Virus record (IMG/VR): IMGVR_UViG_3300050821_001527
Span: 64,001-128,000 of that record
DNA from: a virus
Lineage: Duplodnaviria > Caudoviricetes
Length of the DNA: 64,000 nt
Direction: 5' to 3' (one strand)
How positions within the stretch are numbered: position 1 is the stretch's first letter; each line of letters opens with the position of its first letter. Below, piece by piece: positions 44,618-63,092 of the stretch. The notes under the pieces are model-generated. The model saw nothing but the letters and a program-made list of their open reading frames with translations, did no database searches and had not been told where the DNA came from. A program made the position numbers and the translations under genes.

Positions 44618-45001
44618 GGGGACGTAATGGTTTCGACATTTATTGTTGAAAGCCGAACGCAAGCACGGGATGATTGTTGGCCCGTTAAAAATTCAATCAA
44701 AACATAAATGCTAACAAAGTAGCACTTAGAAATGCAGTTGACTGCGGAGTAGTTCGCGGTTTTGCAGCATTTGCGATGGCTTAATGCCGTCCCGTCCACC
44801 ACTCCGATTCTCGCTACGAGTGAATGGGCGTAAAAACAGCGGGAAAAAACCCTAGAGCCGGTTCGAGGGTAACGGAACCGGATATTGATGGTGAGTTTTG
44901 CTGCCAGTGTAGCCAATCAAGAATATCAAAGGCTGATAAGCTTGTAGTGTTTTTCTTGCAAACGTAAGTGGACGCGGGTTCAACTCCCGCCGTCTCCACC
45001 A
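44618..45001 (+). ncRNA. ssrA: tmRNA, tag ORF 44710-44784 (A)ANKVALRNAVDCGVVRGFAAFAMA*
   Basis: 5' GGGGACG...GGTTTCGAC and 3' GCGGGTTCAACTCCCGCCGTCTCCACCA; G3.U70, A73; TA-N3-GCT resume context. Confidence 0.95.
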
Positions 45002-52681: not shown

Positions 52682-52755
52682 GCGGTAGTGGTGAAATAGT
52701 ATCACACGACGTTGCCAACGTTGAAGCGTCGGGGCAGAACCGACTTACCGCACCA
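52682..52755 (+). tRNA. trnG-GCC: tRNA-Gly(GCC)
   Basis: Cloverleaf, CCA; T loop GGCAGAA. Confidence 0.85.
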
Positions 52756-52833
52756 ATTACTTCTCGCAGGAGTGCGATGGGCCAATCCAAAAGGTTCGCC
52801 CGCTAAAAACTCCCCGTCCAACGACGGGCATAC

Positions 52834-52905
52834 ATCCAGTTGTTCAAGAGAACAATGCGAACTCCAAATCCGCAGAGCAGGGCGCGATACCTTGACTGGA
52901 TGCCA
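52834..52905 (+). tRNA. trnW-CCA: tRNA-Trp(CCA), miniature D arm
   Basis: Loop CTCCAAA, G73, T loop CGCGATA. Confidence 0.65.
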
Positions 52906-52906
52906 T

Positions 52907-53386
52907 TTAATGAGGGTTGTGTTTGACGACCCTTTCGCATAGAGCGATAAACTCGTCAACCGAAAGGTCTTGTTTAGCGTAGTTCACTTCGCTAGTAACC
53001 AAGCCACAGTTCGCCAGAGATGATTCGCCGCCTTTTGAAACTGCGACGATATGGTCTAGGGAATAGGTTTCCGGCTTGGAAATGTCAATTCTTTCACCAG
53101 TAAGATAGCAGCGTGGCTCACTTCCGATTTTATCCTTGAGTTGTTGAACGGTGAATTTGACGACTTTTGGGCGCACAGAACTTCTTCGATTGCCCCTGTA
53201 AAACGTCGCAATCTTAGAAACGAGAGGATTAGTTTCTCGGTAGTTTTTGGTGTTCTTTTGCATAGAAAGCTTTCTGTTCGGGCTGAAACGGTAGATAAGA
53301 GTCCATTTTGAGATTCCGGTTTCCTTGGCAACCGCGTCATAGCTCATTCCGTCAGTAAGCATTTTTTGAATTTTTTCATCGTTCAT
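52907..53386 (-). CDS. HTH-HNH endonuclease inserted antisense in the tRNA array
   Basis: CYLTG...SLDHIV..SKGG...LANCGL....N.AK; GTGTAAT-N7-ATG start. Confidence 0.88.
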   Translation of the reverse strand: MNDEKIQKMLTDGMSYDAVAKETGISKWTLIYRFSPNRKLSMQKNTKNYRETNPLVSKIATFYRGNRRSSVRPKVVKFTVQQLKDKIGSEPRCYLTGERIDISKPETYSLDHIVAVSKGGESSLANCGLVTSEVNYAKQDLSVDEFIALCERVVKHNPH

Positions 53387-53437
53387 ACAAGATATTACAC
53401 TTGCAAATTGCCAGTGGGAACTTGCAATGACGATTTT

Positions 53438-53509
53438 GGGCGTGTGTAGAAGGCTACTGGTTTGCTTTGCAAGCAAATTGTCGGGGAGCGTTACCCCGCA
53501 TGTCCACCA
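53438..53509 (+). tRNA. trnA-UGC: tRNA-Ala(UGC)
   Basis: G3.U70, loop TTTGCAA, T loop AGCGTTA. Confidence 0.85.
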
Positions 53510-53515
53510 ATTTTA

Positions 53516-53678
53516 CGGGTGTTGGCGAAAGTCAGTCAAGCTGACAGCGGAACCGTTAGAAAACCCGCCAAACGCAACCTCAAGTGTGGAGAATACTGGC
53601 TCATATAATTGCCTGAAAAGGCGATACAATGGGGGTTTTTAATGTCTCCTTGTGGGTATAACTCCCACACACCCGCCA
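53516..53678 (+). ncRNA. tRNA shell with about 90-nt structured insert in the anticodon arm (Lys-UUU-like if excised)
   Basis: GGGTGT/ACACCC-G-CCA, D arm, GACA/TGTC stem, T arm GTGGG-TATAACT-CCCAC. Confidence 0.55.
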
Positions 53679-53679
53679 A

Positions 53680-53875
53680 TTTCAGTAGCATTAGCGGTTA
53701 AGGCAATACGATTAGTTACGTGAGCCTCCGTCCACAAGGTAGTGGGTATAATCAAGAAACAAGTGACTCGGTGCCTAAAAGGAGTCATCCCAATGAGCGG
53801 GCGAAAGCTTGTCGCGTTCACCGATTACAAGGTGCATTGGTGCGATAAATGCAGGGTGCGAATCCCAAGCTGAAA
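53680..53875 (+). ncRNA. Multi-hairpin RNA with 3' T-arm mimic
   Basis: TTTCAGT/GCTGAAA closing stem, at least 5 internal hairpins, GGG-TGCGAAT-CCC. Confidence 0.5.
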
Positions 53876-53997
53876 GTATTTCTATCGGCATCAACACAAT
53901 GAACACACCGGCTTAAATGAGTTTCATAACTATGTTGAGTTAGCCGCGTGGTGCTGGTGAGTCGGCGGGTAATCAATCCCGTATGGAGAAAAGTTTC

Positions 53998-54071
53998 GGG
54001 GTTGTGGTTCAATAGCAGAACGGCGGATTCGCAATTCGCAGACGACGGCGCGATACCGTCCTACTCCACCA
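53998..54071 (+). tRNA. trnA-CGC: tRNA-Ala(CGC)
   Basis: G3.U70, loop TTCGCAA. Confidence 0.85.
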
Positions 54072-54081
54072 ATTTCAATTT

Positions 54082-54158
54082 CCGGCCTGCCGTTTGGGTG
54101 CGAGTCCCAAGTTTAAGCAAGTGAAAGCGGCTAACTAGCATAGGTCAATGGTCGGCCA
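54082..54158 (+). ncRNA. T-arm-first (permuted) tRNA-like RNA ending in CCA
   Basis: CCGGCC/GGTCGG-CCA; TTGGG-TGCGAGT-CCCAA near the 5' end. Confidence 0.45.
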
Positions 54159-54162
54159 ATTT

Positions 54163-54236
54163 GGGGTCATAGTTCAATAGTAGAACGCGAGGCTGGCAGT
54201 CTTGTAATCAGAGTGCGATTCTCTGTGGCTCCACCA
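54163..54236 (+). tRNA. trnA-GGC: tRNA-Ala(GGC)
   Basis: G3.U70, loop CTGGCAG. Confidence 0.85.
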
Positions 54237-54343
54237 ATTTCTGAAACGTTCGGGATGGTGTAACGCGCTTTGGCGGTTCATTCGCCATTGCGAACTTCCG
54301 TTGTATCGAGAGAAGCGAAACGGCGTTTCGGGCAAACTTTAAT

Positions 54344-54437
54344 GGCCGGTGTCCCCATCGGGAGTCTGTAAAACTTCTATGCTTACAAATGTGATGGGAA
54401 GTTGCACCGAAGGAGCGTTACCTTCACCGCGCCACCA
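54344..54437 (+). tRNA. Atypical tRNA-Tyr(GUA), D-armless
   Basis: Loop CTGTAAA, bulged acceptor, T loop AGCGTTA, ACCA. Confidence 0.55.
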
Positions 54438-54651
54438 ATTTCTTCTTGACCGAAAACCAGACCTGTAAACCGAATGTCCCGGTAGGTTGCACGTATTGGT
54501 GAGTAAGAGGACACAGGAAGGAAAATTTTCATCCACTGGCGCACTGGCGCTAGTGCGAGATTCGGGGTGGGTGGCAATGAAGACCGAAGCCCCGACAACG
54601 CGAAACCTGCAAAAAGTGGTTTAACTACCGAGAGAGAGGACTCGGCGTAAT

Positions 54652-54727
54652 GGTGGTATTGATGTAATAGTTAGCATCTTCCCCTGTGAAGGGAACTGTG
54701 CGGGTGCGAATCCCGTATATCACCCCA
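54652..54727 (+). tRNA. trnH-GUG: tRNA-His(GUG)
   Basis: Encoded G-1:C73, loop CTGTGAA. Confidence 0.9.
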
Positions 54728-54767
54728 ATTTCATTCACGTAGAACATGAAAGTGTGTAATAAAAGTT

Positions 54768-55214
54768 ATGAGCAGCGTTGACTCACTCGAAAACCACGAC
54801 CAGTTCCATTTGGAACAACTGCACAAGCTTTCCTGTCAAAGCGGCTCGAAGGACATTCTCGTTATTGACGATAGCACGGGCGACTTGATGGACATTCAGA
54901 AGATTATGAACCTCAAGTATGCAGACCAATTTCACGTAAGGTATTGTCTGGACGCTGAAAAGGGGATTGAGATTCTCAAGGAAAACAATTTCTTTTTGGT
55001 TTTGCTCGATTTCAAGATGCCGAAGTTGAACGGTCTTGAAGTAATCGAGACGGTAAACAAGATGAAGCAGAACGTTCCGTTCGTAGTTTTGACGGGATAC
55101 GGCGACCCATCCATGCGCGAAGCATTGACAAGATTGGGCGTAATGCTCCTGTTGGACAAGCCAATCACGGAGAAGAAGCTGGACATGCTCCTGACTTTGA
55201 CTCACGCGAAATAA
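54768..55214 (+). CDS. Stand-alone CheY-like receiver domain
   Basis: IDD, LLD.KMP..NG, LTG, DKP all intact. Confidence 0.92.
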   Translation: MSSVDSLENHDQFHLEQLHKLSCQSGSKDILVIDDSTGDLMDIQKIMNLKYADQFHVRYCLDAEKGIEILKENNFFLVLLDFKMPKLNGLEVIETVNKMKQNVPFVVLTGYGDPSMREALTRLGVMLLLDKPITEKKLDMLLTLTHAK

Positions 55215-55219
55215 TTTCT

Positions 55220-55296
55220 GGCCGCATAGCTCAAATAGATAGAGCAGCACCCCGCGAAGGTGAAGGTTGTAGGTGCGACTCCTACTGTGGCTACCA
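55220..55296 (+). tRNA. trnR-GCG: tRNA-Arg(GCG), C33
   Basis: Loop CCGCGAA; D loop AAATAGATA; T loop TGCGACT. Confidence 0.75.
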
Positions 55297-55493
55297 TTTT
55301 CCCGCATAGTCCGTTGAGCAGCCCCGTAGCAACGAGGAAACAAAAGCTTGATGGTTCAGCCAAGCCGTGCGCCAGCGCGGTATTTGCGTGGTGCGAGTCC
55401 ACGGGGAACGATTTATCCCCCTGCTGGTATAGTCCAGCGAAGTAGGTGAGGCTAACCTATGAGTGGTTCGTAACGCACAAGAGGGAATTTTAT

Positions 55494-55576
55494 GGGCATG
55501 TAACCGAAGCAGTCCTCGAAACTGATTAACCGTAATTATGTTGCAAATGTGGGTGAGATTCCCTCCATGCCTACCA
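55494..55576 (+). tRNA. tRNA-like gene, anticodon unresolved (possible pseudo-tRNA)
   Basis: GGGCATG/CATGCCT-A-CCA and T arm present; anticodon stem poorly paired. Confidence 0.45.
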
Positions 55577-55662
55577 ATTTCTCTGTTTGACAATCGAGCC
55601 TAAATAGTCTGCACAGACGGCGCGGGTTCGTAGATGTTGTGCGAAACGGAGGATTCATTTCT

Positions 55663-55755
55663 GTTCCCGTAGCTGAAAGACAGCCGGTGCCCTTATAAAG
55701 CACTTAATCGCTAGATTGGCGTAAGACTCAGGAGCGTTACCTGACGGGAATACCA
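55663..55755 (+). tRNA. tRNA with UAU anticodon and long variable arm
   Basis: Loop CTTATAA; TAATC-GCTA-GATTG variable hairpin. Confidence 0.7.
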
Positions 55756-55762
55756 AATTTTA

Positions 55763-55846
55763 CGCATCGTGACATAAGCGCGAATAGCACAGCCACACGT
55801 CTCAAAAATGTGAGTTTTAAGGGTGCGAGTCCCTTCGATGCGACCA
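55763..55846 (+). tRNA. trnL-CAA: tRNA-Leu(CAA), short V region, insertion before the D stem
   Basis: Loop CTCAAAA, A73. Confidence 0.75.
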
Positions 55847-55852
55847 ATTTAT

Positions 55853-55928
55853 GTGCCTATGATGGAATAGCATACATACCAGCCTCAGAAGTTGGGTTTT
55901 GCAGGTGCGAGTCCTGCTAGGCATACCA
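55853..55928 (+). tRNA. trnL-CAG: tRNA-Leu(CAG), class I-like short V loop
   Basis: Loop CTCAGAA. Confidence 0.8.
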
Positions 55929-55933
55929 TTTCC

Positions 55934-56017
55934 CGCTCCGTGACCTTGTAGCGAACAGCACAGCTTGCCGTCTTAGACACGGTGGTTTTGCAGGTGCGAG
56001 TCCTGTCGGAGCGACCA
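55934..56017 (+). tRNA. trnL-UAG: tRNA-Leu(UAG), short V region, insertion before the D stem
   Basis: Loop CTTAGAC. Confidence 0.75.
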
Positions 56018-56022
56018 ATTTA

Positions 56023-56110
56023 GCCAGTGTGGTGAAAGAGCAGACACACCATCTTGAGAAGGTGGCGCGAATAAAGTAGCGTGTAGGTGCGAATCCTATC
56101 ACTGGCACCA
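56023..56110 (+). tRNA. trnL-GAG: tRNA-Leu(GAG), long V arm
   Basis: Loop TTGAGAA. Confidence 0.85.
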
Positions 56111-56192
56111 ATTTCCTAATGGAAGGTCTGTTAGGACACAGTAGCAGTCGAGATTCTAACCGCCTCGCCGGGGCGTTGCTACACGGCATTAC

Positions 56193-56267
56193 GGTCTATT
56201 GTTGAATGAGTTATCATAGTTCCCTGTCACGGAGCAATAACGGGTGCGAGTCCCGTATAGACCGCCA
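56193..56267 (+). tRNA. trnD-GUC: tRNA-Asp(GUC)
   Basis: Loop CTGTCAC, G73. Confidence 0.85.
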
Positions 56268-56272
56268 TTTTA

Positions 56273-56340
56273 CGGCTGAGTTAGCGATTCCTGCGCGTGG
56301 GAACGAGACGATTCACTTCGTTTAACTGATGAAGCCGCCA
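56273..56340 (+). ncRNA. 68-nt CCA-ended RNA with a T-loop-like hairpin first
   Basis: CGGCT/AGCCG-CCA; AGTTAG/TTAACT; TTCC-TGCGCGT-GGGA. Confidence 0.4.
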
Positions 56341-56345
56341 ATTTT

Positions 56346-56422
56346 GGGATAGAAGGTAAAGTAGTGGAACCGTTCCGTTGTCTGCGGAAAAAAAGTGGGT
56401 GCGACTCCCATCTATCTCGCCA
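56346..56422 (+). tRNA. trnD-GUC: tRNA-Asp(GUC), second copy, U37
   Basis: Loop TTGTCTG, G73. Confidence 0.75.
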
Positions 56423-56517
56423 TTTTGTCAGAGAAGTCCGTCAACCATGCGGTTGACCCGTATGGAGAACGTCGAGTTCAGACATATTGTATAGCTGGCC
56501 ACTTAGGACTTCCGTTC

Positions 56518-56595
56518 AGTCAGTGAGGGAGTAAGATAACCCCGACGCCTGCAAAGCGTTTCGTATAGTCGGAGCATTACCGACACTGACTTCCA
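56518..56595 (+). tRNA. trnC-GCA: tRNA-Cys(GCA)
   Basis: Loop CTGCAAA, U73, T loop AGCATTA. Confidence 0.85.
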
Positions 56596-56599
56596 TTTC

Positions 56600-56676
56600 G
56601 TCCTAATGGTGTAAGGGAATTACAACACGGTAGTCTTCGGACTACAGATGCAAGCCAACTATTGCAAGGGACTCCA
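56600..56676 (+). ncRNA. tRNA-like RNA with a cUUCGg tetraloop replacing the anticodon loop
   Basis: GTAGTC-TTCG-GACTAC; D and T arms; CCA end. Confidence 0.5.
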
Positions 56677-56680
56677 ATTT

Positions 56681-56757
56681 CGGTTTGTCGCCTAGTGTTC
56701 ATGGCACTCGCCTTGGGAGCGAGCATAACGCGGGTTAAAATCCCGCCAAGCCGACCA
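56681..56757 (+). tRNA. trnP-UGG: tRNA-Pro(UGG)
   Basis: Loop CTTGGGA; T loop TTAAAAT with D-loop GT (U19-A56). Confidence 0.85.
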
Positions 56758-56766
56758 TTTTTTAGA

Positions 56767-56843
56767 CGGGGTATAATGTCAGCAGCTAGACGGCTCCCTT
56801 CGGAGGGGAGAGGCCGTGGGTGCGAATCCCACTACCCCGACCA
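56767..56843 (+). tRNA. trnP-CGG: tRNA-Pro(CGG)
   Basis: Loop TTCGGAG. Confidence 0.85.
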
Positions 56844-56847
56844 TTTA

Positions 56848-56918
56848 TGCAGGAAGAATGAGATTCAAGCGGGCCTCATAAGCCTACCCCCGTGGACGCG
56901 ACTTCCACTCCTGCTTCC
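56848..56918 (+). tRNA. tRNA-Met(CAU)-like, 1:72 mismatch, short D arm
   Basis: Loop CTCATAA; T loop CGCGACT. Confidence 0.55.
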
Positions 56919-56963
56919 ATTTTTTATCGAACAGAAACCGTTCTCCGATATAATAGATATTTA

Positions 56964-57041
56964 CGCGGGGTGGACAAGTAGTAAGTCGTTGGCCTCATAA
57001 GCCAAATATCGTCAGGTGCGATTCCTGACCTCACGCAACCA
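56964..57041 (+). tRNA. trnfM-CAU: Initiator tRNA-fMet(CAU), bulged acceptor
   Basis: CGCGGGG 5' end, C1:A72, loop CTCATAA. Confidence 0.8.
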
Positions 57042-57044
57042 TTT

Positions 57045-57461
57045 ATGGAAGACGCCGTTCTCAACACGCAAAAAGCCTTGGACACCGCATTGGCATCATT
57101 GAATGCGCTGGCTAAAAAAGATTACGTTCCTCCGACAACCCCCGACATTGACCCCGAAACTGAAATGCCGATTAAAGGGAATGGCACGGAAGAATATGAT
57201 ACCGAAGACGCTTACGAGGATGGGGAAGAAGCAGTCCGTCTGTGCATTGAAATTGCCCAGTTGAGGCTAGAGGTCGAGGGCCAGCCCCGCCGTGCTATCG
57301 TCAACACGGAAAAGGCGGCAGAAATCCGAGCAAGGGGAGCGATTGACAAGGTAAGACCAGAGCGTCACCTGAGCGTTTCTCCCGAACTTATCAAGAGTAT
57401 CGAACATTCCGTAGCTAAACCGGAAATGATGTTCTTCGTTTTGGAAGAACCCAAGGAATAA
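57045..57461 (+). CDS. Hypothetical acidic protein, 138 aa, within the tRNA array
   Basis: ORF exactly fills the gap between two tRNAs. Confidence 0.65.
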   Translation: MEDAVLNTQKALDTALASLNALAKKDYVPPTTPDIDPETEMPIKGNGTEEYDTEDAYEDGEEAVRLCIEIAQLRLEVEGQPRRAIVNTEKAAEIRARGAIDKVRPERHLSVSPELIKSIEHSVAKPEMMFFVLEEPKE

Positions 57462-57467
57462 GATTTC

Positions 57468-57542
57468 GCGTTGTTGGCAGAGAAGTGATGCGCTTGCCTT
57501 CCAAGCAAGTTTAAGTGGGAGCATTACCCACACAACGCTCCA
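57468..57542 (+). tRNA. trnG-UCC: tRNA-Gly(UCC)
   Basis: Loop CTTCCAA, U73. Confidence 0.85.
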
Positions 57543-57545
57543 ATT

Positions 57546-57970
57546 TGTCCGAAGCTATAATCCCCGTGCGTAATAGCACTAAGCGCAAGTAGGCCGAAAG
57601 GCAGAACCGTGATGGTGGATGAACTGCTCGTCTAAAATATCGGCTACATAATTTAGTCAGGTCGTCGGTCTGTCGTTGCGGTGAGCAATCACCAAGCCTA
57701 TGGGACGGCGGCTCGAAAAGGTATCCGTAAGCTGGCAGGAATCGCTTGTGCAAGATTCCACTACCGAAGGAGAATGCGGCGAAAGCCAAGTTCGTTCGCA
57801 CTTGTAGTAGGTCAGTCATCTCAGCCGAGGCAGGCATTTTCAAAATCGTTAGGGTTAGTCCAACCACGGTAAAACGTGAGAGGGGTCATAAAAGACTGCA
57901 AGCGTCACCCTGCCTAAAACCCCCTGTTGGTGAGTGGATAGTTGAAAACGAGGTCAGCGATGACCTGACT
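57546..57970 (+). ncRNA. Large ornate structured RNA (GOLLD/ROOL-like candidate)
   Basis: 13-bp long-range helix 57655-57667/57958-57970; several GNRA-capped hairpins. Confidence 0.6.
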
Positions 57971-57973
57971 TTT

Positions 57974-58049
57974 AGCCGCATGGTGAAATTACAATCACAC
58001 AATCCTGCGAAGATTGAAGTCCCGGTGAGATTCCGGGTGCTGGCTACCA
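57974..58049 (+). tRNA. trnR-GCG: tRNA-Arg(GCG), second copy, bulged acceptor
   Basis: Loop CTGCGAA. Confidence 0.75.
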
Positions 58050-58053
58050 TTTT

Positions 58054-58128
58054 GCGACATAGGTGTTTATAGATACACGCGAGTCTTCCAAACTTGAGTA
58101 GTGAGTGCGATACTCACACGTCGCTCCA
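58054..58128 (+). tRNA. trnG-UCC: tRNA-Gly(UCC), second copy
   Basis: Loop CTTCCAA, U73. Confidence 0.8.
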
Positions 58129-58133
58129 ATTTA

Positions 58134-58186
58134 TGCACCCAAAACTTGCAAGTTACTCGACCCATGAATCGAGTGTGGTGCAACCA
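58134..58186 (+). ncRNA. 53-nt two-hairpin RNA ending in ACCA (armless tRNA-like)
   Basis: TGCACC/GGTGCA-A-CCA; ACTCGA-CCCATGAA-TCGAGT. Confidence 0.4.
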
Positions 58187-58192
58187 ATTTAT

Positions 58193-58267
58193 TCCCTAGT
58201 AGTGTCAAAGTAGCACGTCTCCCTGTTAAGGAGTTTAGTGTTGGTGCGAGTCCAACCTTCGGAACCA
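58193..58267 (+). tRNA. trnN-GUU: tRNA-Asn(GUU), mismatched acceptor
   Basis: Loop CTGTTAA. Confidence 0.65.
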
Positions 58268-58279
58268 TTTAGTCAGCAT

Positions 58280-58364
58280 TCCAGAGTAGGAGAATTGGTA
58301 AACCCAGCGGACTGTTAATCCGCCGCGAAAGCAACTGCTCGTTCAAGTCGAGCCTCTGGAGCCA
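58280..58364 (+). tRNA. trnN-GUU: tRNA-Asn(GUU), canonical elbow, extra variable hairpin
   Basis: D loop GG, T loop TTCAAGT, GC-GAAA-GC variable arm, G73. Confidence 0.9.
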
Positions 58365-58474
58365 TTTTCAAGACATTTCCCCTGACGAAAGCTCTACGAT
58401 GTAGAACATCGCACCAGCAAGTCATGGTTACATGACGTGTCCGTGGACGCACGGAAGCGGGGAGTTTGAATTTT

Positions 58475-58552
58475 GCATCCGTCAACCAAACGCGTAAATG
58501 ACTCGGGCTTTTAACCCAAAGGATGTGGTCACGCAAGCCACCGGATGCACCA
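58475..58552 (+). tRNA. trnK-UUU: tRNA-Lys(UUU)
   Basis: Loop CTTTTAA; divergent T loop. Confidence 0.7.
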
Positions 58553-58670
58553 ATTTCTACCTGAACACAAGTGCTATGTCATCGAGCCAAGTCACGGTTA
58601 TTGTGTATCGTGAAAATTCCGTTGACAATGTAGCAATGCGCGAGAAAGACGCGCACGGGTTCCTTTTCAT

Positions 58671-58744
58671 AGGGATATAGTATAAAAGTAGAACGGCACC
58701 CTGACACGGTGAAGGCGAAGGAGCGTTACCTTCTATCCCTACCA
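58671..58744 (+). tRNA. trnV-GAC: tRNA-Val(GAC)
   Basis: Loop CTGACAC. Confidence 0.85.
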
Positions 58745-58750
58745 TTTTAT

Positions 58751-58830
58751 GAGAATCGAGACGCGGGTGCATATCCCGCCTGCCTGTTTAAATACTTGCA
58801 GTAGCTTAGTAGCAGAGCGCGATTCGTCTC
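58751..58830 (+). ncRNA. YrlA-type Y RNA (permuted tRNA mimic), A18.G55 version
   Basis: Outer GAATCG/CGATTC, T arm, loop-closed acceptor CTGC/GCAG, TA, D arm GCTT-AGTAGCA-GAGC. Confidence 0.75.
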
Positions 58831-58838
58831 CCTTTTAC

Positions 58839-58917
58839 GGAACGGTAACTCAAATGGGTCAAGAGTGTTCGCCCGATTAGCGAAAGGTTGTGGACTCCCA
58901 AGCCACTCGTTCTACCA
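58839..58917 (+). tRNA. trnI-GAU: tRNA-Ile(GAU)
   Basis: Loop CCGATTA. Confidence 0.75.
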
Positions 58918-58922
58918 ATCAC

Positions 58923-58995
58923 GGTTCCATACGATAAAGCAGTCCCCATGCCCGATTAGCGTGGTGTCTTGGTGCGAGTCCAAGTGGAACTACCA
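58923..58995 (+). tRNA. trnI-GAU: tRNA-Ile(GAU), second copy
   Basis: Loop CCGATTA. Confidence 0.7.
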
Positions 58996-59000
58996 TTTAC

Positions 59001-59076
59001 TGCCCTTTAGCTCATTCAGCAGAGCGGCGTCTTGATAAGGCGAAGGTGGTCGGGGCAGAGCCGACAAGGGCAACCA
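59001..59076 (+). tRNA. trnI-GAU: tRNA-Ile(GAU), third copy
   Basis: Loop TTGATAA. Confidence 0.85.
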
Positions 59077-59079
59077 ATT

Positions 59080-59244
59080 ATGAAACCATACGGATTGACA
59101 AAGAAAATCCTACACAACCATCCCGATGTTCACCCGCCGAAGGGCTGGGTCAACTGGTGGGAAAGCGAAACGAGGGACTGTCTCCGCAAGAAAGCAGAAC
59201 GCCAACAGGCGAAAAAACAGATTTTACAAGATTTGGCTTCGTAG
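59080..59244 (+). CDS. 54-aa basic peptide (HPPKGWVNWWE motif); stop lies inside the next tRNA
   Basis: ATG directly after a tRNA CCA-ATT spacer. Confidence 0.6.
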   Translation: MKPYGLTKKILHNHPDVHPPKGWVNWWESETRDCLRKKAERQQAKKQILQDLAS

Positions 59245-59311
59245 CTCAAGCGTCAAGAGCAGCCGCCTTTTAAGCGGAAGCGTCCGGGCAGTCAATCCGG
59301 TGGGGCCACCA
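59235..59311 (+). tRNA. trnK-UUU: tRNA-Lys(UUU), second copy
   Basis: Loop CTTTTAA; T loop CAGTCAA. Confidence 0.8.
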
Positions 59312-59457
59312 ATTTATAAACACCTAGACCGTGTGCGATACCGGCATGGTTTCGTGAGTCGGCTATGTCGAAGCCGAAGAAGATTCGCGGGACTTGGAGT
59401 GTGAAAGAAGCACGGGTGTATTTTTTTGAATAAAAAGCGGATTCGTTTATCATAGGT

Positions 59458-59835
59458 ATGCAAAACGTTTATCTGAACCGCGACGAACTCCTGCCGATTG
59501 TCAAGGAGAACAAGCAAAAGCACGACAACATTTTTTCCACAGCCGTTTCCGGCTATTGGGTCAAGGCCGAAGAAATCCTGAACGGCAAACTGAACAAGGT
59601 CAAAGCCAAGCAGCAAGTTGACAATTACCTTGGACTCAGCTATCCCGAAGACCATTCTGATGAATATGACCGAGTAATCAGGATGCTGGAACTTTCGTCT
59701 GATGACAAGATTCAGCTTACGTCTTCCGAGTTTGATTGCTATGTTCGCAATCAATGGAACTGGCGCAAGGCGTTCTTGACGGTCAATTCAACATACATTT
59801 CGGACTGGAACCCCATTTCCGGGGCTTCATTCTAA
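59458..59835 (+). CDS. Hypothetical helical protein, 125 aa
   Basis: TATCAT -10-like element 4 nt upstream; plausible fold. Confidence 0.7.
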   Translation: MQNVYLNRDELLPIVKENKQKHDNIFSTAVSGYWVKAEEILNGKLNKVKAKQQVDNYLGLSYPEDHSDEYDRVIRMLELSSDDKIQLTSSEFDCYVRNQWNWRKAFLTVNSTYISDWNPISGASF

Positions 59836-59915
59836 CAGTCTTGGTCGAGGCGTGGGTTCGATTCCGCCGTGTGGCTCCATGCCGCACGTAGCTTAGTGGC
59901 AGAGCGCGACCTGTT
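59834..59915 (+). ncRNA. YrlA-type Y RNA, canonical G18.U55 version
   Basis: GGTCG/CGACC outer stem, TTCGATT loop, 7-bp loop-closed acceptor GTGTGGC/GCCGCAC, D arm GCTT-AGTGGCA-GAGC. Confidence 0.8.
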
Positions 59916-59916
59916 C

Positions 59917-59991
59917 GGGGCTATGGTGCAGAAGTAAGCACGTTAGGTTCTCAACCTGAAAACGTCGGAGCGTTACCGACTAGCCCTACCA
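59917..59991 (+). tRNA. trnE-CUC: tRNA-Glu(CUC)
   Basis: Loop TTCTCAA. Confidence 0.85.
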
Positions 59992-59997
59992 ATTTAC

Positions 59998-60073
59998 GGG
60001 GGAGTGGTGCATAAGTAAGCACGGTTGGCTTTCACCCAGCAGAAGCTCGGAGCGTTACCGGCCTCCCCTACCA
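59998..60073 (+). tRNA. trnE-UUC: tRNA-Glu(UUC)
   Basis: Loop CTTTCAC. Confidence 0.85.
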
Positions 60074-60078
60074 TTTCT

Positions 60079-60156
60079 GTAGCTGACCAGTAAGTCGTCG
60101 TCTGCTCTGGCTTTCAACCAGATGTGTAGTGGGTGCGAGTCCCACCAGCTATGCCA
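60079..60156 (+). tRNA. trnE-UUC: tRNA-Glu(UUC), second copy
   Basis: Loop CTTTCAA, G73. Confidence 0.8.
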
Positions 60157-60219
60157 TTTCCGGGGTGCGCCTCGTCAATTCGTTGATAGGACGGCGAATA
60201 TATCACCCCACTTTTTCTC

Positions 60220-60297
60220 GGTTCCGTGGTGTAAATGGATTAAGCACAAGAGACTTTGACCCTCTTAGCTCCGGGTGCCAGCCGGACGGAACTGCCA
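60220..60297 (+). tRNA. trnQ-UUG: tRNA-Gln(UUG)
   Basis: Loop CTTTGAC, G73. Confidence 0.8.
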
Positions 60298-60304
60298 TTT
60301 TTAT

Positions 60305-60380
60305 TCCCTCTTGGATTGTAATAGTAGCAACTCGGGCTTTGAACCCGAAAGCGGTGGGGCAGAACCATCAGAGGGAGCCA
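60305..60380 (+). tRNA. trnQ-UUG: tRNA-Gln(UUG), second copy
   Basis: Loop CTTTGAA, U1-A72, G73. Confidence 0.88.
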
Positions 60381-60465
60381 TTTATCGGGGTAAGGGTGTA
60401 TTCGTGTAACGACCACTCGGAAGGAGTCTGGAAGCTTACGGACAAACTTCGTCCCCATCTATTTT

Positions 60466-60541
60466 CGGAGTGTATTGTCAACAGCAGACGGCCCGCCTTG
60501 GAAGTGGGAGGTAGTTGGGGCAGCACCAACCATTCCGACCA
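60466..60541 (+). tRNA. trnP-UGG: tRNA-Pro(UGG), second copy, A37
   Basis: Loop CTTGGAA. Confidence 0.85.
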
Positions 60542-60545
60542 ATTT

Positions 60546-60728
60546 ATGAACACTGAAAAAATCGTAGGTCAAGAATATCCAGCCGAATGTCTCGTTGATT
60601 CCAAGACGGGTCTGCCGGTGATGATTCGTCATACCGAAGATTCGGACAGGATTCGTCAGTTGGCGAAGGCCAGCGCGGAGAACCTTCTGAGGGCTTTGCG
60701 AGACGAAACGGGGCTGACGCCCATTTAA
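60546..60728 (+). CDS. Hypothetical protein, 60 aa, between tRNAs
   Basis: ORF fills the tRNA spacer exactly. Confidence 0.55.
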   Translation: MNTEKIVGQEYPAECLVDSKTGLPVMIRHTEDSDRIRQLAKASAENLLRALRDETGLTPI

Positions 60729-60733
60729 TTTAC

Positions 60734-60809
60734 GGGTCTATAACTCAAATAGATAGAGCCTCGCCTTCTAAGCGATGGGATTCAGGTGCGACTCCTGATA
60801 GACCTACCA
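60734..60809 (+). tRNA. trnR-UCU: tRNA-Arg(UCU)
   Basis: Loop CTTCTAA. Confidence 0.88.
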
Positions 60810-60866
60810 TTTCTAGTATAGCCACATGGCGTTTCACAAGTGCTTCAACTAGGTGTAATTCTAGGT

Positions 60867-61343
60867 ATGGGCCACAAAGCTACAAACGAACAACTGGCGG
60901 TTATTATCGCAGAGTCTATTTCCTTCTCTGAGGCAATGAGAAAATGCGATATGAAGCCAAGGGGAGCGTCTTACCAATGGTTTCAAAAACGAGTTAAGAA
61001 GCTCGGATTAGACACGTCTCATTTTAAGGGATACTCGGCTGGTGGTCTGGAAAGGGCCAAGCAGATAAAGAAGCATTGGTCGGAGATTCTTGTTTTAGGA
61101 GACGGTTCGGGCAGAGAAAGGTCAGAGCCTCTTAGGAGGGCTTTTAAAGAATACTGCTTAGAGCAGGCAGTCCCACATATTTGCAACGTCTGCAACGTCT
61201 GCAAGATGGAACCAATTTGGAATGGCCAGCCAATGATATTTCAAATTGACCACATCAATTCAATCAATTTCGATAACAGACCGCTGAACCTTCAATGGAT
61301 TTGCGGCAACTGTCATCAACAGAAAAATTCTAACGGCTACTAA
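60867..61343 (+). CDS. HNH endonuclease (second) in the tRNA array
   Basis: LDTSHF N-terminal module; C..C...FQIDHIN....DNR..NL.W.C.NCH. Confidence 0.9.
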   Translation: MGHKATNEQLAVIIAESISFSEAMRKCDMKPRGASYQWFQKRVKKLGLDTSHFKGYSAGGLERAKQIKKHWSEILVLGDGSGRERSEPLRRAFKEYCLEQAVPHICNVCNVCKMEPIWNGQPMIFQIDHINSINFDNRPLNLQWICGNCHQQKNSNGY

Positions 61344-61410
61344 GCTAATCAAGTGAAAGCAGCGGACTGAAAATCCGTGGAGTTTGGCGCGATACCAAAA
61401 GTAGCCACCA
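61335..61410 (+). tRNA. trnF-GAA: tRNA-Phe(GAA)
   Basis: Loop CTGAAAA; overlaps the HNH stop. Confidence 0.85.
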
Positions 61411-61415
61411 ATTTT

Positions 61416-61563
61416 GGGTATATGTTGTAATGGCAGCAAAAAGGGCGGGAGAGTCGAGGGAATAGCAGACCAACTATAGCTCTGTAAGCCTAGTAGCTCG
61501 ATTTGAAAACCTGAATACTCGTCTATACGAGTGGCCTCGGTTCGATTCCGGGTATATCCACCA
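61416..61563 (+). ncRNA. 148-nt tRNA shell (G3.U70, canonical elbow) with about 60-nt insert
   Basis: GGGTATA/TATATCC-A-CCA; D loop GG; T loop TTCGATT; variable hairpin; GTCGAG/CTCGAT-closed insert. Confidence 0.65.
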
Positions 61564-61567
61564 ATCT

Positions 61568-61646
61568 CCGTCAGTAGCTCAAATGTGGTAAGAGCGTTGG
61601 TTTGAAACACCAAAGGTTGTCGTTCCCCAAACGACTTGACGGGCCA
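61568..61646 (+). tRNA. trnF-GAA: tRNA-Phe(GAA), second copy, G73
   Basis: Loop TTGAAAC; T loop TCCCCAA. Confidence 0.7.
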
Positions 61647-61666
61647 TTTTAAGTGTATAATTCTGT

Positions 61667-61921
61667 GTGGAAGCACTAGCAAAACAGACCCTTCAATGTG
61701 ATGACTGCAAGAAAGTCATTGACACCCGCCGCGATACTGACCTTGAGGACAGCATCCAAGCGAAGTTGAAGAACCTCAAGGGCGACCCGCAGGTTTATCA
61801 TTTCTGCGCGGAAAGCTGCCTTGCCTCCTTTTTGCAGAAGCGCATCAAGAAAAAGAACGCCCGCGCCTCATACGACGCTTTCGCCTACGAGATTGATTTG
61901 TCCGGGGCAAAGGTTAAATAA
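61667..61921 (+). CDS. Small metal-binding (TRASH-like) protein
   Basis: CDDC...HFC..SC; TATAAT 5 nt upstream of GTG. Confidence 0.6.
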   Translation: MEALAKQTLQCDDCKKVIDTRRDTDLEDSIQAKLKNLKGDPQVYHFCAESCLASFLQKRIKKKNARASYDAFAYEIDLSGAKVK

Positions 61922-62130
61922 TGAAATTTTCATCTTTCGCCAAGCTTGTGTTGATTTTCGGGGCAGCGATTATGCTCCTTGATGGTTGCGCTCTCGTTGG
62001 TTGTAATCACGCATTCCCGCAAGTCGAATGGTATTGGTCAGCCGATGCTAAAGCCTGTCGCAAGGAACACGCGATGGAAGCCCAGTGGCGACAGTCCGCA
62101 ACAAACAATTTAAGGCAGTCGTTCAAGTGA
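61921..62130 (+). CDS. Small predicted lipoprotein
   Basis: Hydrophobic signal plus LDG-C. Confidence 0.5.
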   Translation: MKFSSFAKLVLIFGAAIMLLDGCALVGCNHAFPQVEWYWSADAKACRKEHAMEAQWRQSATNNLRQSFK

Positions 62131-62184
62131 ACAAGATGCTCTCATAAGGCGTCAAGGATGGAGCGTTACCATCGTCTGCTACCA
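62114..62184 (+). tRNA. trnM-CAU: tRNA-Met(CAU), miniature D arm
   Basis: Loop CTCATAA; GTTC-AAGT-GAAC. Confidence 0.65.
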
Positions 62185-62189
62185 ATTTC

Positions 62190-62266
62190 GGATTCGTAGC
62201 TCAAATGCTAAGAGCAGCCGGTTCTTACCCGGAAGGTTGTGGCTCGTCAAGCCACCGAGTCCACCA
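62190..62266 (+). tRNA. trnK-CUU: tRNA-Lys(CUU)
   Basis: Loop TTCTTAC; D-loop GC with T loop TCGTCAA (C19-G56). Confidence 0.85.
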
Positions 62267-62270
62267 TTTA

Positions 62271-62340
62271 TGGCCGTCAGCCTGAACCCCATCAGGCTAG
62301 TCCACCAAGGACGATGCAGAGGGTTATGCAACGGCATCCA
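62271..62340 (+). ncRNA. Three-hairpin cloverleaf ending in TCCA, no canonical loops
   Basis: GCCGT/ACGGC; AGCCTGA/TCAGGCT; GTCC/GGAC; TGCA/TGCA. Confidence 0.4.
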
Positions 62341-62344
62341 TTTC

Positions 62345-62416
62345 GCCAGTGCCGTCAGCACGGATTCGAGTTTTGTAAACTTGAAGCAGTCGGGGCAGCA
62401 CCGACCTCTGGCTCCA
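62345..62416 (+). tRNA. trnT-UGU: tRNA-Thr(UGU)
   Basis: Loop TTTGTAA. Confidence 0.8.
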
Positions 62417-62420
62417 TTTC

Positions 62421-62556
62421 GCCGTTCTAGTTCAATGTAGAACACGTCTCTCGAAAAGCCGATAGGCTCCCTGAACGGAGCAGTTAGTGGGGTGTTTGCC
62501 CTGCGATGTAATAAGGCCAGATGAACTGCTGGTGCCAAGTCCAGCGAACGGCTCCA
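62421..62556 (+). tRNA. tRNA-Ser(CGA)-like with about 65-nt variable region
   Basis: GCCGTTC/GAACGGC-T-CCA; loop CTCGAAA; multi-hairpin variable region. Confidence 0.6.
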
Positions 62557-62626
62557 AACTAGGCTGCGCGTGGTAGCCTCAGAGGGGTGAAAGTCCCTAA
62601 CCACGACAAATTTAATTCAATTTAAT

Positions 62627-62701
62627 CGCCCGTTCTGAATAATAGTAGTTCGTCGCGCTCTGAACGCGAAGGCGGTGGGGCAGAACCATCACGGGTGGCC
62701 A
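62627..62701 (+). tRNA. trnQ-CUG: tRNA-Gln(CUG)
   Basis: Loop CTCTGAA, G73. Confidence 0.85.
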
Positions 62702-62706
62702 TTTAC

Positions 62707-62780
62707 GCGGGATTAGCTCAAAAGTAGAGCGAGTCGTTTACACCGACAGGACGAGGGAGCATTACCTTCATTCCGCACCA
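62707..62780 (+). tRNA. trnV-UAC: tRNA-Val(UAC)
   Basis: Loop TTTACAC. Confidence 0.88.
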
Positions 62781-62785
62781 TTTAC

Positions 62786-62862
62786 GCAATCGAAGCTACA
62801 GCAGACCGGCTCCCGGCTCTTAACCGGATTTGGTGAGGTTGCAACTACCTCCGATTGCACCA
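62786..62862 (+). tRNA. trnK-CUU: tRNA-Lys(CUU), second copy
   Basis: Loop CTCTTAA. Confidence 0.8.
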
Positions 62863-62866
62863 TTTC

Positions 62867-62946
62867 GCGGTCTTAGCTTAAACGGATAAAAGCCCTTCGC
62901 TCTTAACGAATGAGATGTCGCCCTCCAAGCAGGACAGACCGCACCA
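62867..62946 (+). tRNA. trnK-CUU: tRNA-Lys(CUU), third copy, irregular T arm
   Basis: Loop CTCTTAA. Confidence 0.7.
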
Positions 62947-62957
62947 ATTTGATTACA

Positions 62958-62998
62958 CCCCTGCCGCCTCTTGACAATGCGTAATCGCAGGGGTTTTT
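62958..62998 (+). terminator. Probable terminator near the end of the array
   Basis: CCCCTGC/GCAGGGG plus T5. Confidence 0.55.
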
Positions 62999-63006
62999 CC
63001 ATTTAT

Positions 63007-63092
63007 GGCCGTGTGTAGCGTAAGGGAAAAGCAGAACCGATAGACTTAAAATCTGTTGCTACTTGAGGGTGCAAGACCGTCCACGGCTACCA
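63007..63092 (+). tRNA. trnL-UAA: tRNA-Leu(UAA), insertion before the D stem pairing with the V region
   Basis: Loop CTTAAAA; GTAGCG/TGCTAC extra helix. Confidence 0.75.

Follow-up and report, generated by a model that had tools for sequence, protein, structure and literature searches.

The residues G18 and U55 (the latter as pseudouridine, Psi55) and the T-Psi-C loop belong to the textbook invariants of transfer RNA (tRNA). Besides their housekeeping set some bacteria carry long accessory tRNA arrays (tRNA array units or L-arrays, e.g., the Anabaena trn operon) with dozens of extra co-oriented genes in mobile or accessory DNA, and we know of no description of a systematic A18/G55 elbow in these bacterial L-arrays. 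In staphylococci three hypomodified glycine species (tRNA-Gly NP1-3) are kept out of translation by weak EF-Tu determinants (PMC13443448). Residue 18, bonded to Psi55, is intercalated between 57 and 58 in the tRNA elbow, and 19:56 is the exposed outer pair (PMC4810234). Most T-loops of other RNAs combine a U:A handle with a UNR or GNR turn, and their intercalating base meets a “G clamp”, to which the “U clamp” of tRNA is the exception (PMC2615604); a riboswitch study found the T-loop consensus YGNRA and an intercalating base that is almost exclusively adenosine (bioRxiv 10.1101/2022.12.26.521914). Here, we describe the tRNA array of a soil jumbo phage in most units of which A18 and G55 take the place of G18 and U55. 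It occupies positions 52682-63092 (+ strand) of a stretch of 64,000 nucleotides (nt), called the window below, that corresponds to bases 64001-128000 of the 202,882-bp IMG/VR virus record IMGVR_UViG_3300050821_001527 (estimated completeness 91%). The A18-G55 elbow looks like a working and apparently undescribed alternative design of tRNA; the open-access literature yielded no description of A18/G55 tRNAs or of phage tRNAs with G55, and neither “G55” nor “A18” appears in a review of T-loop modifications.

The viral record encodes a DnaE-type polymerase, DnaB, ribonucleotide reductase and transfer-messenger RNA (tmRNA), and the public runs in which the array is contained come from soil, some being metagenomes and others metatranscriptomes. 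A megablast search with the array found nothing among cultured phages, and no close cultured relative was found by DnaE (identity at most 33% among the matches listed). With 49 co-oriented tRNA or tRNA-like units on one strand within 10.4 kb, continuing past the end of the window, the array belongs to the class of large phage or accessory tRNA arrays (at least 20 co-oriented tRNA genes, densely packed in viral or accessory DNA). ARAGORN at default settings detects 16 tRNAs in the window, and the Rfam tRNA model (RF00005) places 27 of the 49 units at or above its 29-bit cut-off with scores of 32-55 bits, the others being lower or unreported. The units were delineated by our own cloverleaf parser (7-bp acceptor stem, 5-bp T stem, 7-nt T loop, D and anticodon arms) plus manual curation and by a CCA-anchored scan (fully paired 5-bp T stem, 7-nt loop, 6-7-bp acceptor stem), which gave 43 genuine units; the total of 49 adds relaxed and hand-curated cases to the CCA-anchored ones. 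Full cloverleaf constraints (acceptor, T stem and loop, anticodon arm with U33 and R37) are satisfied by 41 units. Two covariance models were dropped for the explicit parser with controls, namely R1 (built from a MAFFT alignment), which captured only 9 base pairs, and R2 (built from 5 sequences), which was over-specific with 26 matches. Positions 18 and 19 were set by rule as a dinucleotide at least 2 nt from the 5' end of the D loop and followed by at least 2 nt, GG outranking AG.

Over the 49 units the T-loop dinucleotide 55-56 is GC in 37, TC in three, GA and CC in two each, and TA, CG, TG, AG and AC in one each. Thus, G55 is present in 39 of 49 units which, with A at position 18, depart from the near-universal G18/U55 of tRNA (RF00005); G19 and C56 are retained in 37. 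The T loops fall into the classes TGCGAxT, AGCGTTA/AGCATTA, GGCAGAA and CGCGATA, and the D loops of the G55 units contain A-G instead of G18-G19 (e.g., AATAGTA or AAATAGATA). Among the 31 high-confidence cloverleafs 21 combine A-G with G55-C56 and three G-G with U55, and none is mixed (Fisher p=5e-4). A first-pass annotation of this DNA had put G55 in about 40 of about 50 tRNAs, paired with A-G D loops, and had named four exceptions (Asn at 58280, the unit at 61416, Pro at 56681 and Lys at 62190); the present counts agree with it, and all four exceptions are as it described them.

The same partition is found outside the window. DnaE relatives occur on 44 viral contigs, and among five large DnaE-related phages the arrays of G001 and G004 are rewired while those of G002 and G003 are wholly canonical. 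G004 is the most distant of these by DnaE (46% identity to the phage described here) and G002 and G003 show 59-60%. The rewired state is thus uncoupled from DnaE similarity, and the arrays seem to be gained or swapped as modules. The array of G004 contains both types together, with eight GG/U55 and 16 AG/G55 tRNAs and no mixed one (Fisher p=1.4e-6). A search of IMG/VR for pairs of TGCGA-type T arms at a distance of 65-95 nt yielded 46 stretches, against a rough chance expectation of a handful; the tRNAs parsed in them comprise 480 AG/G55C56, 123 GG/U55C56, seven GG/G55C56 and three AG/U55C56. When the array tRNAs of this phage family were pooled with those of other IMG/VR contigs and of GTDB genomes (the GTDB part being the matches listed), the 1604 distinct tRNAs included 985 AG/G55C56 and 399 GG/U55C56, compared with 27 GG/G55C56 and two AG/U55C56 (29 mixed). 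At the 44 loci with at least two tRNAs of each type, 278 + 335 = 613 tRNAs are concordant and 12 discordant (12/625). Since pooled sequences are related, the within-genome and within-locus tests are the fair ones.

The outer pair can be followed in those tRNAs that have lost C56. From 55 and 56 a D-loop dinucleotide can be predicted whose first base (A or G) partners 55 and whose second is the Watson-Crick complement of 56. This dinucleotide is present in 56 of 88 tRNAs with non-C56 (50 loci), compared with 9.6 +/- 2.9 and 23 +/- 3.9 in two shuffled controls. Examples are A18-U19 with G55-A56, A18-C19 with G55-G56 and G18-U19 with U55-A56. The 18/55 swap covaries, and 19:56 covaries as a Watson-Crick pair. 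The earlier proposal that 19:56 pairing is conserved while 18-55 is exchanged stands, and the covariation it called for is significant in single genomes, both in this phage and in G004.

The swap is not a general trait of phage tRNAs. In blastn searches with this array and with a rewired array of 29 tRNAs, eight arrays of cultured phages were reached and all of them are canonical (T5-like S130, FelixO1-like SME50, phiPsa374, MrDarsey, Vibrio Pylo, Caulobacter CcrPW, Stenotrophomonas Pokken and Roseobacter DSS3P8). With the same parser and rule 126 of their 133 tRNAs are G18G19/U55C56 and none is A18/G55; because these control arrays parse as canonical, the rewired signal is neither a parser artefact nor common to phage tRNAs at large. 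Scanning GTDB species representatives with the same pattern gave at least 120 stretches. Among the 120 listed, 48 contain no tRNA and are chance matches, and 46 contain at least five rewired tRNAs; the latter, among the matches listed, belong to Verrucomicrobiota (28), Myxococcota (8), Planctomycetota (6) and others (4). Chance matches without tRNA occur also in several IMG/VR stretches, one of them a giant-virus contig from a metagenome-assembled genome. Some of the GTDB rewired arrays sit on megabase contigs and closed chromosomes. Hundreds of accessory tRNAs of phages and bacteria thus share the swap. In two carrier genomes of Verrucomicrobiae all distinct best-scoring dispersed tRNAs (29/29, about 70-77 bits) are canonical by the same rule, and the low scorers cluster in arrays. 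The objection weighed in the first-pass annotation, that A18-G55 might be the ordinary state of the host's own tRNAs, thus does not hold at least for these two carriers. Hints at the host of this phage come from the taxonomy of the chromosomal carriers and from the His tRNA, in which a stretch of 57 nt shares 89-91% identity with array tRNAs of Verrucomicrobiae contigs. The idea that the elbow is a private “self” mark of this phage has to be given up, since the same elbow is found in many unrelated viral contigs and in bacterial chromosomal accessory arrays.

As an observation on genomic context, a closed Verrucomicrobiae chromosome (G011:C1:346000-361000 and 2429000-2435500; L256 and L258) carries rewired arrays among genes for GH106 rhamnosidase, cupin, hydrolase, RtcB and Ro60, and these arrays do not look like an obvious prophage.

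The sequences of the rewired loops suggest how such an elbow could be built. In the pooled set the G55 loops UGCGA (485), UGCAA (302), CGCGA (32) and CGCAA (27) fit YGNRA, and GGCAG (69), AGCGU (62) and AGCAU (24) lie outside it. The expected adenosine donor is present, with A-G at 18-19 in 985 G55-C56 tRNAs vs. G-G in 27. The pair 54:58 is U:A in 73% of tRNAs when 55 is G and in 97% when 55 is U, the other combinations being G:G, A:U, C:A, C:C and A:A; of these C:A, G:G, A:A and C:C appear among the T-loop variants compiled in PMC2615604. U54 is absent in about 27% of rewired tRNAs, and position 60 is A in 21% of tRNAs with G55 vs. 2% with U55. In our proposal the inner contact G18-Psi55 would be replaced by A18-G55, and the outer stacking pair 19:56 would stay Watson-Crick. 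The G at loop position 2 would clamp an adenosine intercalated between loop positions 4 and 5, and A18 would be that adenosine. The result would be an elbow of the same shape with an altered inner layer, and its exposed 19:56 face, which is used by the ribosome, RNase P and other elbow readers, would be kept unchanged. As U55 and G18 are replaced, neither Psi55 (formed by TruB) nor Gm18 (2'-O-methylguanosine, formed by TrmH) should be possible, so that the rewired tRNAs are predicted to have lost both modifications.

Apart from the elbow the rewired tRNAs have the appearance of ordinary bacterial tRNAs. G3:U70 and A73 are found in each of the three Ala tRNAs of the window, and the His tRNA has G-1 and C73. 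In the pooled set G3:U70 is found in 60/60 rewired Ala tRNAs vs. 3/925 other rewired tRNAs, and the discriminator bases are of bacterial type (Cys U73 46/46, Asp G73 29/30, Asn G73 40/41, Val A73 66/66). Of the 985 rewired tRNAs, 966 have a purine at 37 (R37) and 835 have U33; G53:C61 is kept in 98%, a purine at 57 in 100%, and the 15:48 combinations match those of canonical array tRNAs. The rewired form is seen for all 20 amino-acid specificities, from 26% of Ser (lowest) to 78% of Gly tRNAs (highest). The base pair 51:63, according to Uhlenbeck and co-workers (thermodynamic compensation), is said to be the main one by which tRNA bodies are tuned to EF-Tu. It is G:C or C:G in a fraction of about 1.0 of Asp, Glu, Gly and Ala tRNAs, both rewired and canonical, and almost always so in Lys and His. 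In Asn, Gln, Arg and Tyr it is mostly A:U or U:A, the share of G:C and C:G being 0.1-0.2 in Asn and Gln. The overlap between rewired and canonical tRNAs at 51:63 is 0.400 vs. 0.292 +/- 0.009 with shuffled labels, and the neighbouring pair 52:62 showed no amino-acid-specific pattern. If 51:63 tunes the affinity for EF-Tu, the retained pattern argues for EF-Tu-dependent use. Together with the kept 19:56 face and the identity elements it leads us to expect processing, charging and use in translation, so that the translation-competent look ascribed to the set by the first-pass annotation is borne out at the level of sequence. Unmatched and random loss of stems or bases, as in pseudogenes, is not seen; the substitutions are matched, and stems and identity elements are intact.

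The individual units of the array are as follows (positions in the window, all on the + strand; the methods that detected a unit, where given, stand last).

52682..52755, +, tRNA-Gly(GCC), rewired; D loop AATAGTA, T loop GGCAGAA; Rfam 46.8 bits, parser
52834..52905, +, tRNA-Trp(CCA), rewired; T loop CGCGATA; parser, ARAGORN relaxed
53438..53509, +, tRNA-Ala(TGC); G3:U70, T loop AGCGTTA (A54/U58, G55); parser, ARAGORN relaxed
53998..54071, +, tRNA-Ala(CGC); G3:U70, D loop AATAGCA, T loop CGCGATA; Rfam 51.4 bits, parser
54163..54236, +, tRNA-Ala(GGC); G3:U70, D loop AATAGTA, T loop TGCGATT; ARAGORN, Rfam, parser
54653..54727, +, tRNA-His(GTG); G-1, C73, D loop AATAGTTA, T loop TGCGAAT; ARAGORN, Rfam, parser
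55220..55296, +, tRNA-Arg(GCG); D loop AAATAGATA, T loop TGCGACT; ARAGORN, Rfam, parser
55494..55576, +, tRNA-like unit with atypical core; T loop TGAGATT (G55-A56); Rfam 22.2 bits, below cut-off
55663..55755, +, tRNA-Ile(TAT)-like unit with long variable region; T loop AGCGTTA; ARAGORN, parser
55763..55846, +, tRNA-like unit (ARAGORN relaxed: Leu CAA, 8-nt insert); T loop TGCGAGT
55853..55928, +, tRNA-Leu(CAG) with short variable loop; D loop GAATAGCATA, T loop TGCGAGT; ARAGORN, Rfam, parser
55934..56017, +, tRNA-like unit with atypical core; T loop TGCGAGT; CCA-anchored scan
56023..56110, +, tRNA-Leu(GAG) with long variable arm; T loop TGCGAAT; ARAGORN, Rfam, parser
56193..56267, +, tRNA-Asp(GTC); G73, D loop ATGAGTTA, T loop TGCGAGT; ARAGORN, Rfam, parser
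56346..56422, +, second Asp(GTC)-like tRNA; T loop TGCGACT; Rfam 36.4 bits, parser
56518..56595, +, tRNA-Cys(GCA); U73, T loop AGCATTA; parser, ARAGORN relaxed
56681..56757, +, tRNA-Pro(TGG), exception; G18-U19 with U55-A56, T loop TTAAAAT; ARAGORN, Rfam, parser
56767..56843, +, tRNA-like unit with GGA at the anticodon position and an odd anticodon loop; T loop TGCGAAT; Rfam 46.6 bits, parser
56848..56919, +, tRNA-Met(CAT)-like unit; T loop CGCGACT; ARAGORN relaxed
56964..57036, +, tRNA-Met(CAT); T loop TGCGATT, two extra bases, then CCA; ARAGORN, Rfam
57468..57542, +, tRNA-Gly(TCC); T loop AGCATTA; ARAGORN, Rfam, parser
57975..58049, +, tRNA-Arg(GCG)-like unit; T loop TGAGATT (G55-A56); Rfam 36.6 bits, CCA-anchored scan, ARAGORN relaxed
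58054..58128, +, tRNA-Gly(TCC); D loop TTATAGAT, T loop TGCGATA; parser, ARAGORN relaxed
58193..58267, +, tRNA-Asn(GTT), rewired; D loop CAAAGTA, T loop TGCGAGT; ARAGORN, Rfam, curation
58280..58364, +, tRNA-Asn(GTT), canonical exception; G18G19, D loop GAATTGGTAAA, T loop TTCAAGT; ARAGORN, Rfam, parser
58475..58552, +, tRNA-like unit with weak D and anticodon arms; T loop CACGCAA; parser
58671..58744, +, tRNA-Val(GAC); D loop AAAAGTA, T loop AGCGTTA; Rfam, parser
58839..58917, +, tRNA-Ile(GAT)-like unit, C-rich class; G18G19 D loop, T loop CTCCCAA; parser
58923..58995, +, tRNA-Ile(GAT); T loop TGCGAGT; parser, ARAGORN relaxed
59001..59076, +, tRNA-Ile(GAT); D loop ATTCAGCA, T loop GGCAGAG; Rfam 38.3 bits, parser
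59235..59311, +, tRNA-Lys(TTT), other elbow type; T loop CAGTCAA (A55-G56); Rfam, parser
59917..59991, +, tRNA-Glu(CTC); D loop AGAAGTAA, T loop AGCGTTA; ARAGORN, Rfam, parser
59998..60073, +, tRNA-Glu(TTC); D loop ATAAGTAA, T loop AGCGTTA; ARAGORN, Rfam, parser
60079..60156, +, third Glu(TTC)-like tRNA; T loop TGCGAGT; parser, ARAGORN relaxed
60220..60297, +, tRNA-Gln(TTG), other type; G18G19 D loop, T loop GTGCCAG; Rfam 32.6 bits, parser
60305..60380, +, tRNA-Gln(TTG); D loop GTAATAGTA, T loop GGCAGAA; R2 model, parser
60466..60541, +, tRNA-Pro(TGG); D loop CAACAGCA, T loop GGCAGCA; R2 model, parser
60734..60809, +, tRNA-Arg(TCT); D loop AAATAGAT, T loop TGCGACT; ARAGORN, Rfam, curation
61335..61410, +, tRNA-Phe(GAA); T loop CGCGATA; Rfam, parser
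61416..61563, +, tRNA-like unit with an insert of about 51 nt (ARAGORN relaxed: Ser TGA); canonical G18G19, T loop TTCGATT
61568..61646, +, tRNA-Phe(GAA), C55-C56 class; G18G19, T loop TCCCCAA; ARAGORN, Rfam, parser
62114..62184, +, tRNA-Met(CAT)-like unit with reduced D arm; T loop AGCGTTA; R2 model, parser
62190..62266, +, tRNA-Lys(CTT), exception; G18-C19 with C55-G56, T loop TCGTCAA; Rfam, parser
62345..62416, +, tRNA-Thr(TGT) with short D arm; T loop GGCAGCA; parser
62627..62701, +, tRNA-Gln(CTG); D loop TAATAGTA, T loop GGCAGAA; R2 model, parser
62707..62780, +, tRNA-Val(TAC); D loop AAAAGTA, T loop AGCATTA; Rfam, parser
62786..62862, +, tRNA-Lys(CTT)-like unit; T loop TGCAACT; parser
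62867..62946, +, tRNA-like unit (CTT) with poorly paired T arm; G18G19 D loop; R2 model, curation
63007..63092, +, tRNA-like unit with atypical core; T loop TGCAAGA; curation

A third elbow type with a G18-G19 D loop and a C-rich T loop (TCCCCAA, CTCCCAA) is found at 61568-61646, 58839-58917 and 62867-62946; it possibly forms two Watson-Crick pairs, 18:55 and 19:56, and the combination GG/C55C56 occurs 12 times in the pooled set. Three tRNA-like units bear inserts in or near the anticodon loop (ARAGORN relaxed), of about 51 nt at 61416-61563, about 62 nt at 62421-62556 and 8 nt at 55763-55846, and an Rfam search for a group I intron in these units gave no match. Nearly all units of the array have an encoded CCA followed by (A)TTT, and between 52600 and 63100 the + strand has 58 copies of the motif CCA(A)TTT and the - strand two. 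The CCA plus A/T-rich trailers are similar in arrays of cultured phages (T5-like, FelixO1-like), so that this trailer probably belongs to the general context of processing, without being tied to the rewired elbow.

Several other elements lie within or near the array. Two open reading frames (ORFs) for HNH endonucleases are inserted at 52907-53476 (-) and 60840-61343 (+); the family of the former adjoins 21 of 79 rewired arrays elsewhere and is probably a homing endonuclease that travels with the arrays. A stand-alone response-regulator receiver-domain ORF lies between tRNAs at 54768-55214 (Pfam PF00072, E 2.5e-18). The tmRNA at 44618-45001 (Rfam 140.5 bits) encodes an unusual 24-residue tag ending with AFAMA. 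Between two tRNAs, at 57652-57971, there is a raiA-motif-like RNA (RF03072, E 2.6e-11; its 54.9 bits lie below the cut-off of 101.3 bits). One of the soil metatranscriptomes has a contig of 350 nt, with a depth of 242, that joins 57971 back to 57652, which suggests that this RNA may be circular or tandem, and a contig of a second study covers it at the highest depth within the 20 kb analysed. About 9.9 kb beyond the window an RNase P RNA without the elbow reader had been proposed; it is not supported, as Rfam gave no RNase P match there even at E values up to 10.

Within about 4 kb of 79 rewired arrays we found genes for HNH endonucleases (21), Ro60/TROVE (15), RtcB (7) and SPFH proteins (5). 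This phage encodes an RtcB RNA ligase outside the window (genome 155372-156463, Pfam 276 bits), and no TROVE/Ro60 match was found in its genome. In G001 a TROVE gene adjoins the array, and G004 has neither RtcB nor TROVE. A neighbourhood of RNA-repair genes would fit a reserve of tRNAs for use when tRNAs are damaged. The array was recovered in metatranscriptome assemblies of two soil studies, one of them with 94% of the sampled words, and its cover is uneven relative to the upstream genes; these data are consistent with transcription of the array, carry-over of DNA into the assembled contigs being possible.

The best explanation of these findings appears to be that the units function as tRNAs and can be aminoacylated, their elbow being an alternative one whose likely benefit is escape from readers of the universal signature, a view that we hold with moderate confidence. 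That they are functional alternative-elbow tRNAs is very likely judging from their sequences; a protective role is plausible but unproven and has to be regarded as speculative. According to this explanation the rewired tRNAs would constitute a chemically distinct accessory pool without Psi55 and Gm18, located in phage genomes and bacterial accessory arrays and seen in none of the dispersed tRNAs checked in two carriers. Enzymes that read the T-Psi-C/GG signature (nucleases, toxins or modification-dependent surveillance) would ignore this pool, which would sustain translation while canonical tRNAs are under attack. In a more far-reaching and more tentative form, to which we give less than even credence, A18-G55 would define a widespread orthogonal “G-clamp elbow” class of spare decoding sets, blind to the Psi55/Gm18 enzymes and to signature readers, that are swapped among large phages and chromosomes of Verrucomicrobiota, Myxococcota and Planctomycetota and sustain translation under attack on canonical tRNAs.

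Several points weigh against this explanation. The pooled counts include related sequences, so that pooled p-values exaggerate independence, and shared ancestry could account for part of the agreement in 51:63 and in the identity elements. In ten units of the window the elbow is of another kind that the explanation does not cover, or the core is atypical. The association with Ro60 and RtcB comes without a control of canonical arrays and from loci gathered by a pattern that requires rewired T arms, and among the five related phages the presence of RtcB or TROVE does not track the rewired state. A nuclease directed at the elbow or T loop was identified neither in this phage nor in any carrier. 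Evasion of elbow-reading toxins and selective destruction of host tRNAs, the purposes considered in the first-pass annotation, are to be taken as hypothetical. The RNA data are assembled contigs, which carry no transcript ends, strand or level, and the processing, charging and ribosomal use that we infer come from sequence features.

Among the alternatives a neutral origin fares best, although we consider it rather unlikely. Here, A18-G55 would simply be a second stable elbow that arose in less constrained accessory tRNAs and spread by duplication, gene conversion and horizontal transfer without any specific benefit. YGNRA plus adenosine is indeed a stable module (bioRxiv 10.1101/2022.12.26.521914), arrays move as modules, as the distant but rewired G004 and the closer but canonical G002 and G003 demonstrate, and 54:58 is relaxed in rewired tRNAs. 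However, both types coexist in 44 arrays with hardly any intermediates, which speaks for strong selection on the 18/55 pair. In addition, the swap dominates many independent arrays and all 20 amino acids and is absent both from the dispersed tRNAs of carriers (29/29) and from the 133 tRNAs of the eight cultured phages; so sharp a partition would not be expected for a neutral trait.

A further alternative, which appears improbable, is that the G-clamp elbow allows some 50 tRNAs made in a burst to fold without TruB, TrmA and TrmH, the gain being speed or independence from maturation enzymes of the host. The bases replaced, U55 and G18, are exactly the targets of TruB and TrmH, U54 is frequently lost as well, and large arrays would presumably burden the modification enzymes of the host. 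Nevertheless, the eight cultured-phage arrays, most with about 14-24 tRNAs, keep the canonical elbow, and chromosomal arrays share the swap though their cells modify their own canonical tRNAs.

Still less probable are non-translational RNAs, i.e., decoys or adaptors such as partners of Ro60 in the manner of Y RNAs, nuclease decoys or non-ribosomal aminoacyl donors comparable to the staphylococcal cell-wall tRNA-Gly. Staphylococcal non-proteogenic tRNA-Gly without G18-G19 and U55 (PMC13443448), the Ro60 genes next to 15 of 79 rewired arrays and the atypical cores or inserts of several units in the window point in this direction. The near-complete anticodon set, the identity elements matching for all 20 amino acids, the 51:63 tuning that the staphylococcal species do not share (PMC13443448), the kept G19:C56 and the lack of a TROVE gene in this phage speak against it. 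Finally, decaying pseudogenes or a parsing artefact, which the ARAGORN failures at two thirds of the units and the low Rfam scores might suggest, have a practically negligible probability in view of intact stems, matched covariation, kept identity elements (among them G3:U70 in every rewired Ala tRNA), conservation of the pattern in dozens of unrelated contigs and canonical parser controls, and, as far as sequence decay goes, the first-pass concern about pseudogenes can be laid aside.

If the alternative-elbow explanation holds, the “universal” elbow is one of at least two workable designs, and nature provides a test of the roles of Psi55, Gm18 and m5U54 (5-methyluridine). It suggests a new axis of phage-host conflict, or a back-up under stress, located at the tRNA elbow instead of the anticodon loop. 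Because ARAGORN by default missed two thirds of the units and Rfam scored them low, gene finders likely under-call rewired tRNAs, so that tRNA counts of phages and metagenomes may be too low. In synthetic biology the elbow could act as an orthogonality handle.

Compared with known systems, bacterial Y RNAs (YrlA, encoded next to rsr (Ro60) and rtcB; PMC4201824) resemble the rewired arrays in tRNA mimicry beside Ro60 and RtcB genes. In contrast with YrlA, whose tRNA-like domain has no anticodon arm and is not charged, most units described here are full cloverleafs with anticodons and identity elements, and this phage is without a Ro60 gene. The staphylococcal tRNA-Gly NP1-3 (PMC13443448) are likewise natural bacterial tRNAs without the conserved G18-G19 and U55, whereas the rewired tRNAs cover all 20 specificities, keep G19:C56 and retain the amino-acid-specific pattern at 51:63. 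Generic T-loop modules, as known from FMN (flavin mononucleotide) and cobalamin riboswitches and ribosomal RNA (PMC2615604, bioRxiv 10.1101/2022.12.26.521914), share YGNRA, the G at position 2 and the adenosine from another loop. In the phage array such a module, with a geometry deduced from these likenesses, would stand inside the tRNA elbow alongside the 19:56 Watson-Crick pair, and the AGCGU and GGCAG classes lie outside YGNRA. From bacterial L-arrays the rewired ones differ in their carriers, which are mainly Verrucomicrobiota, Myxococcota and Planctomycetota and presumed phages. With canonical phage arrays they share the dense, co-oriented arrangement interspersed with small ORFs and HNH endonucleases, and with canonical bacterial and phage elongator tRNAs and their arrays (T5-like, FelixO1-like, CcrPW) the cloverleaf, the anticodon repertoire, the identity elements and the encoded CCA with its A/T-rich trailer. 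What sets them apart from canonical tRNAs is the joint replacement of G18/U55 by A18/G55, together with a 54:58 pair that is often not U:A and Rfam scores lower by 20-30 bits.

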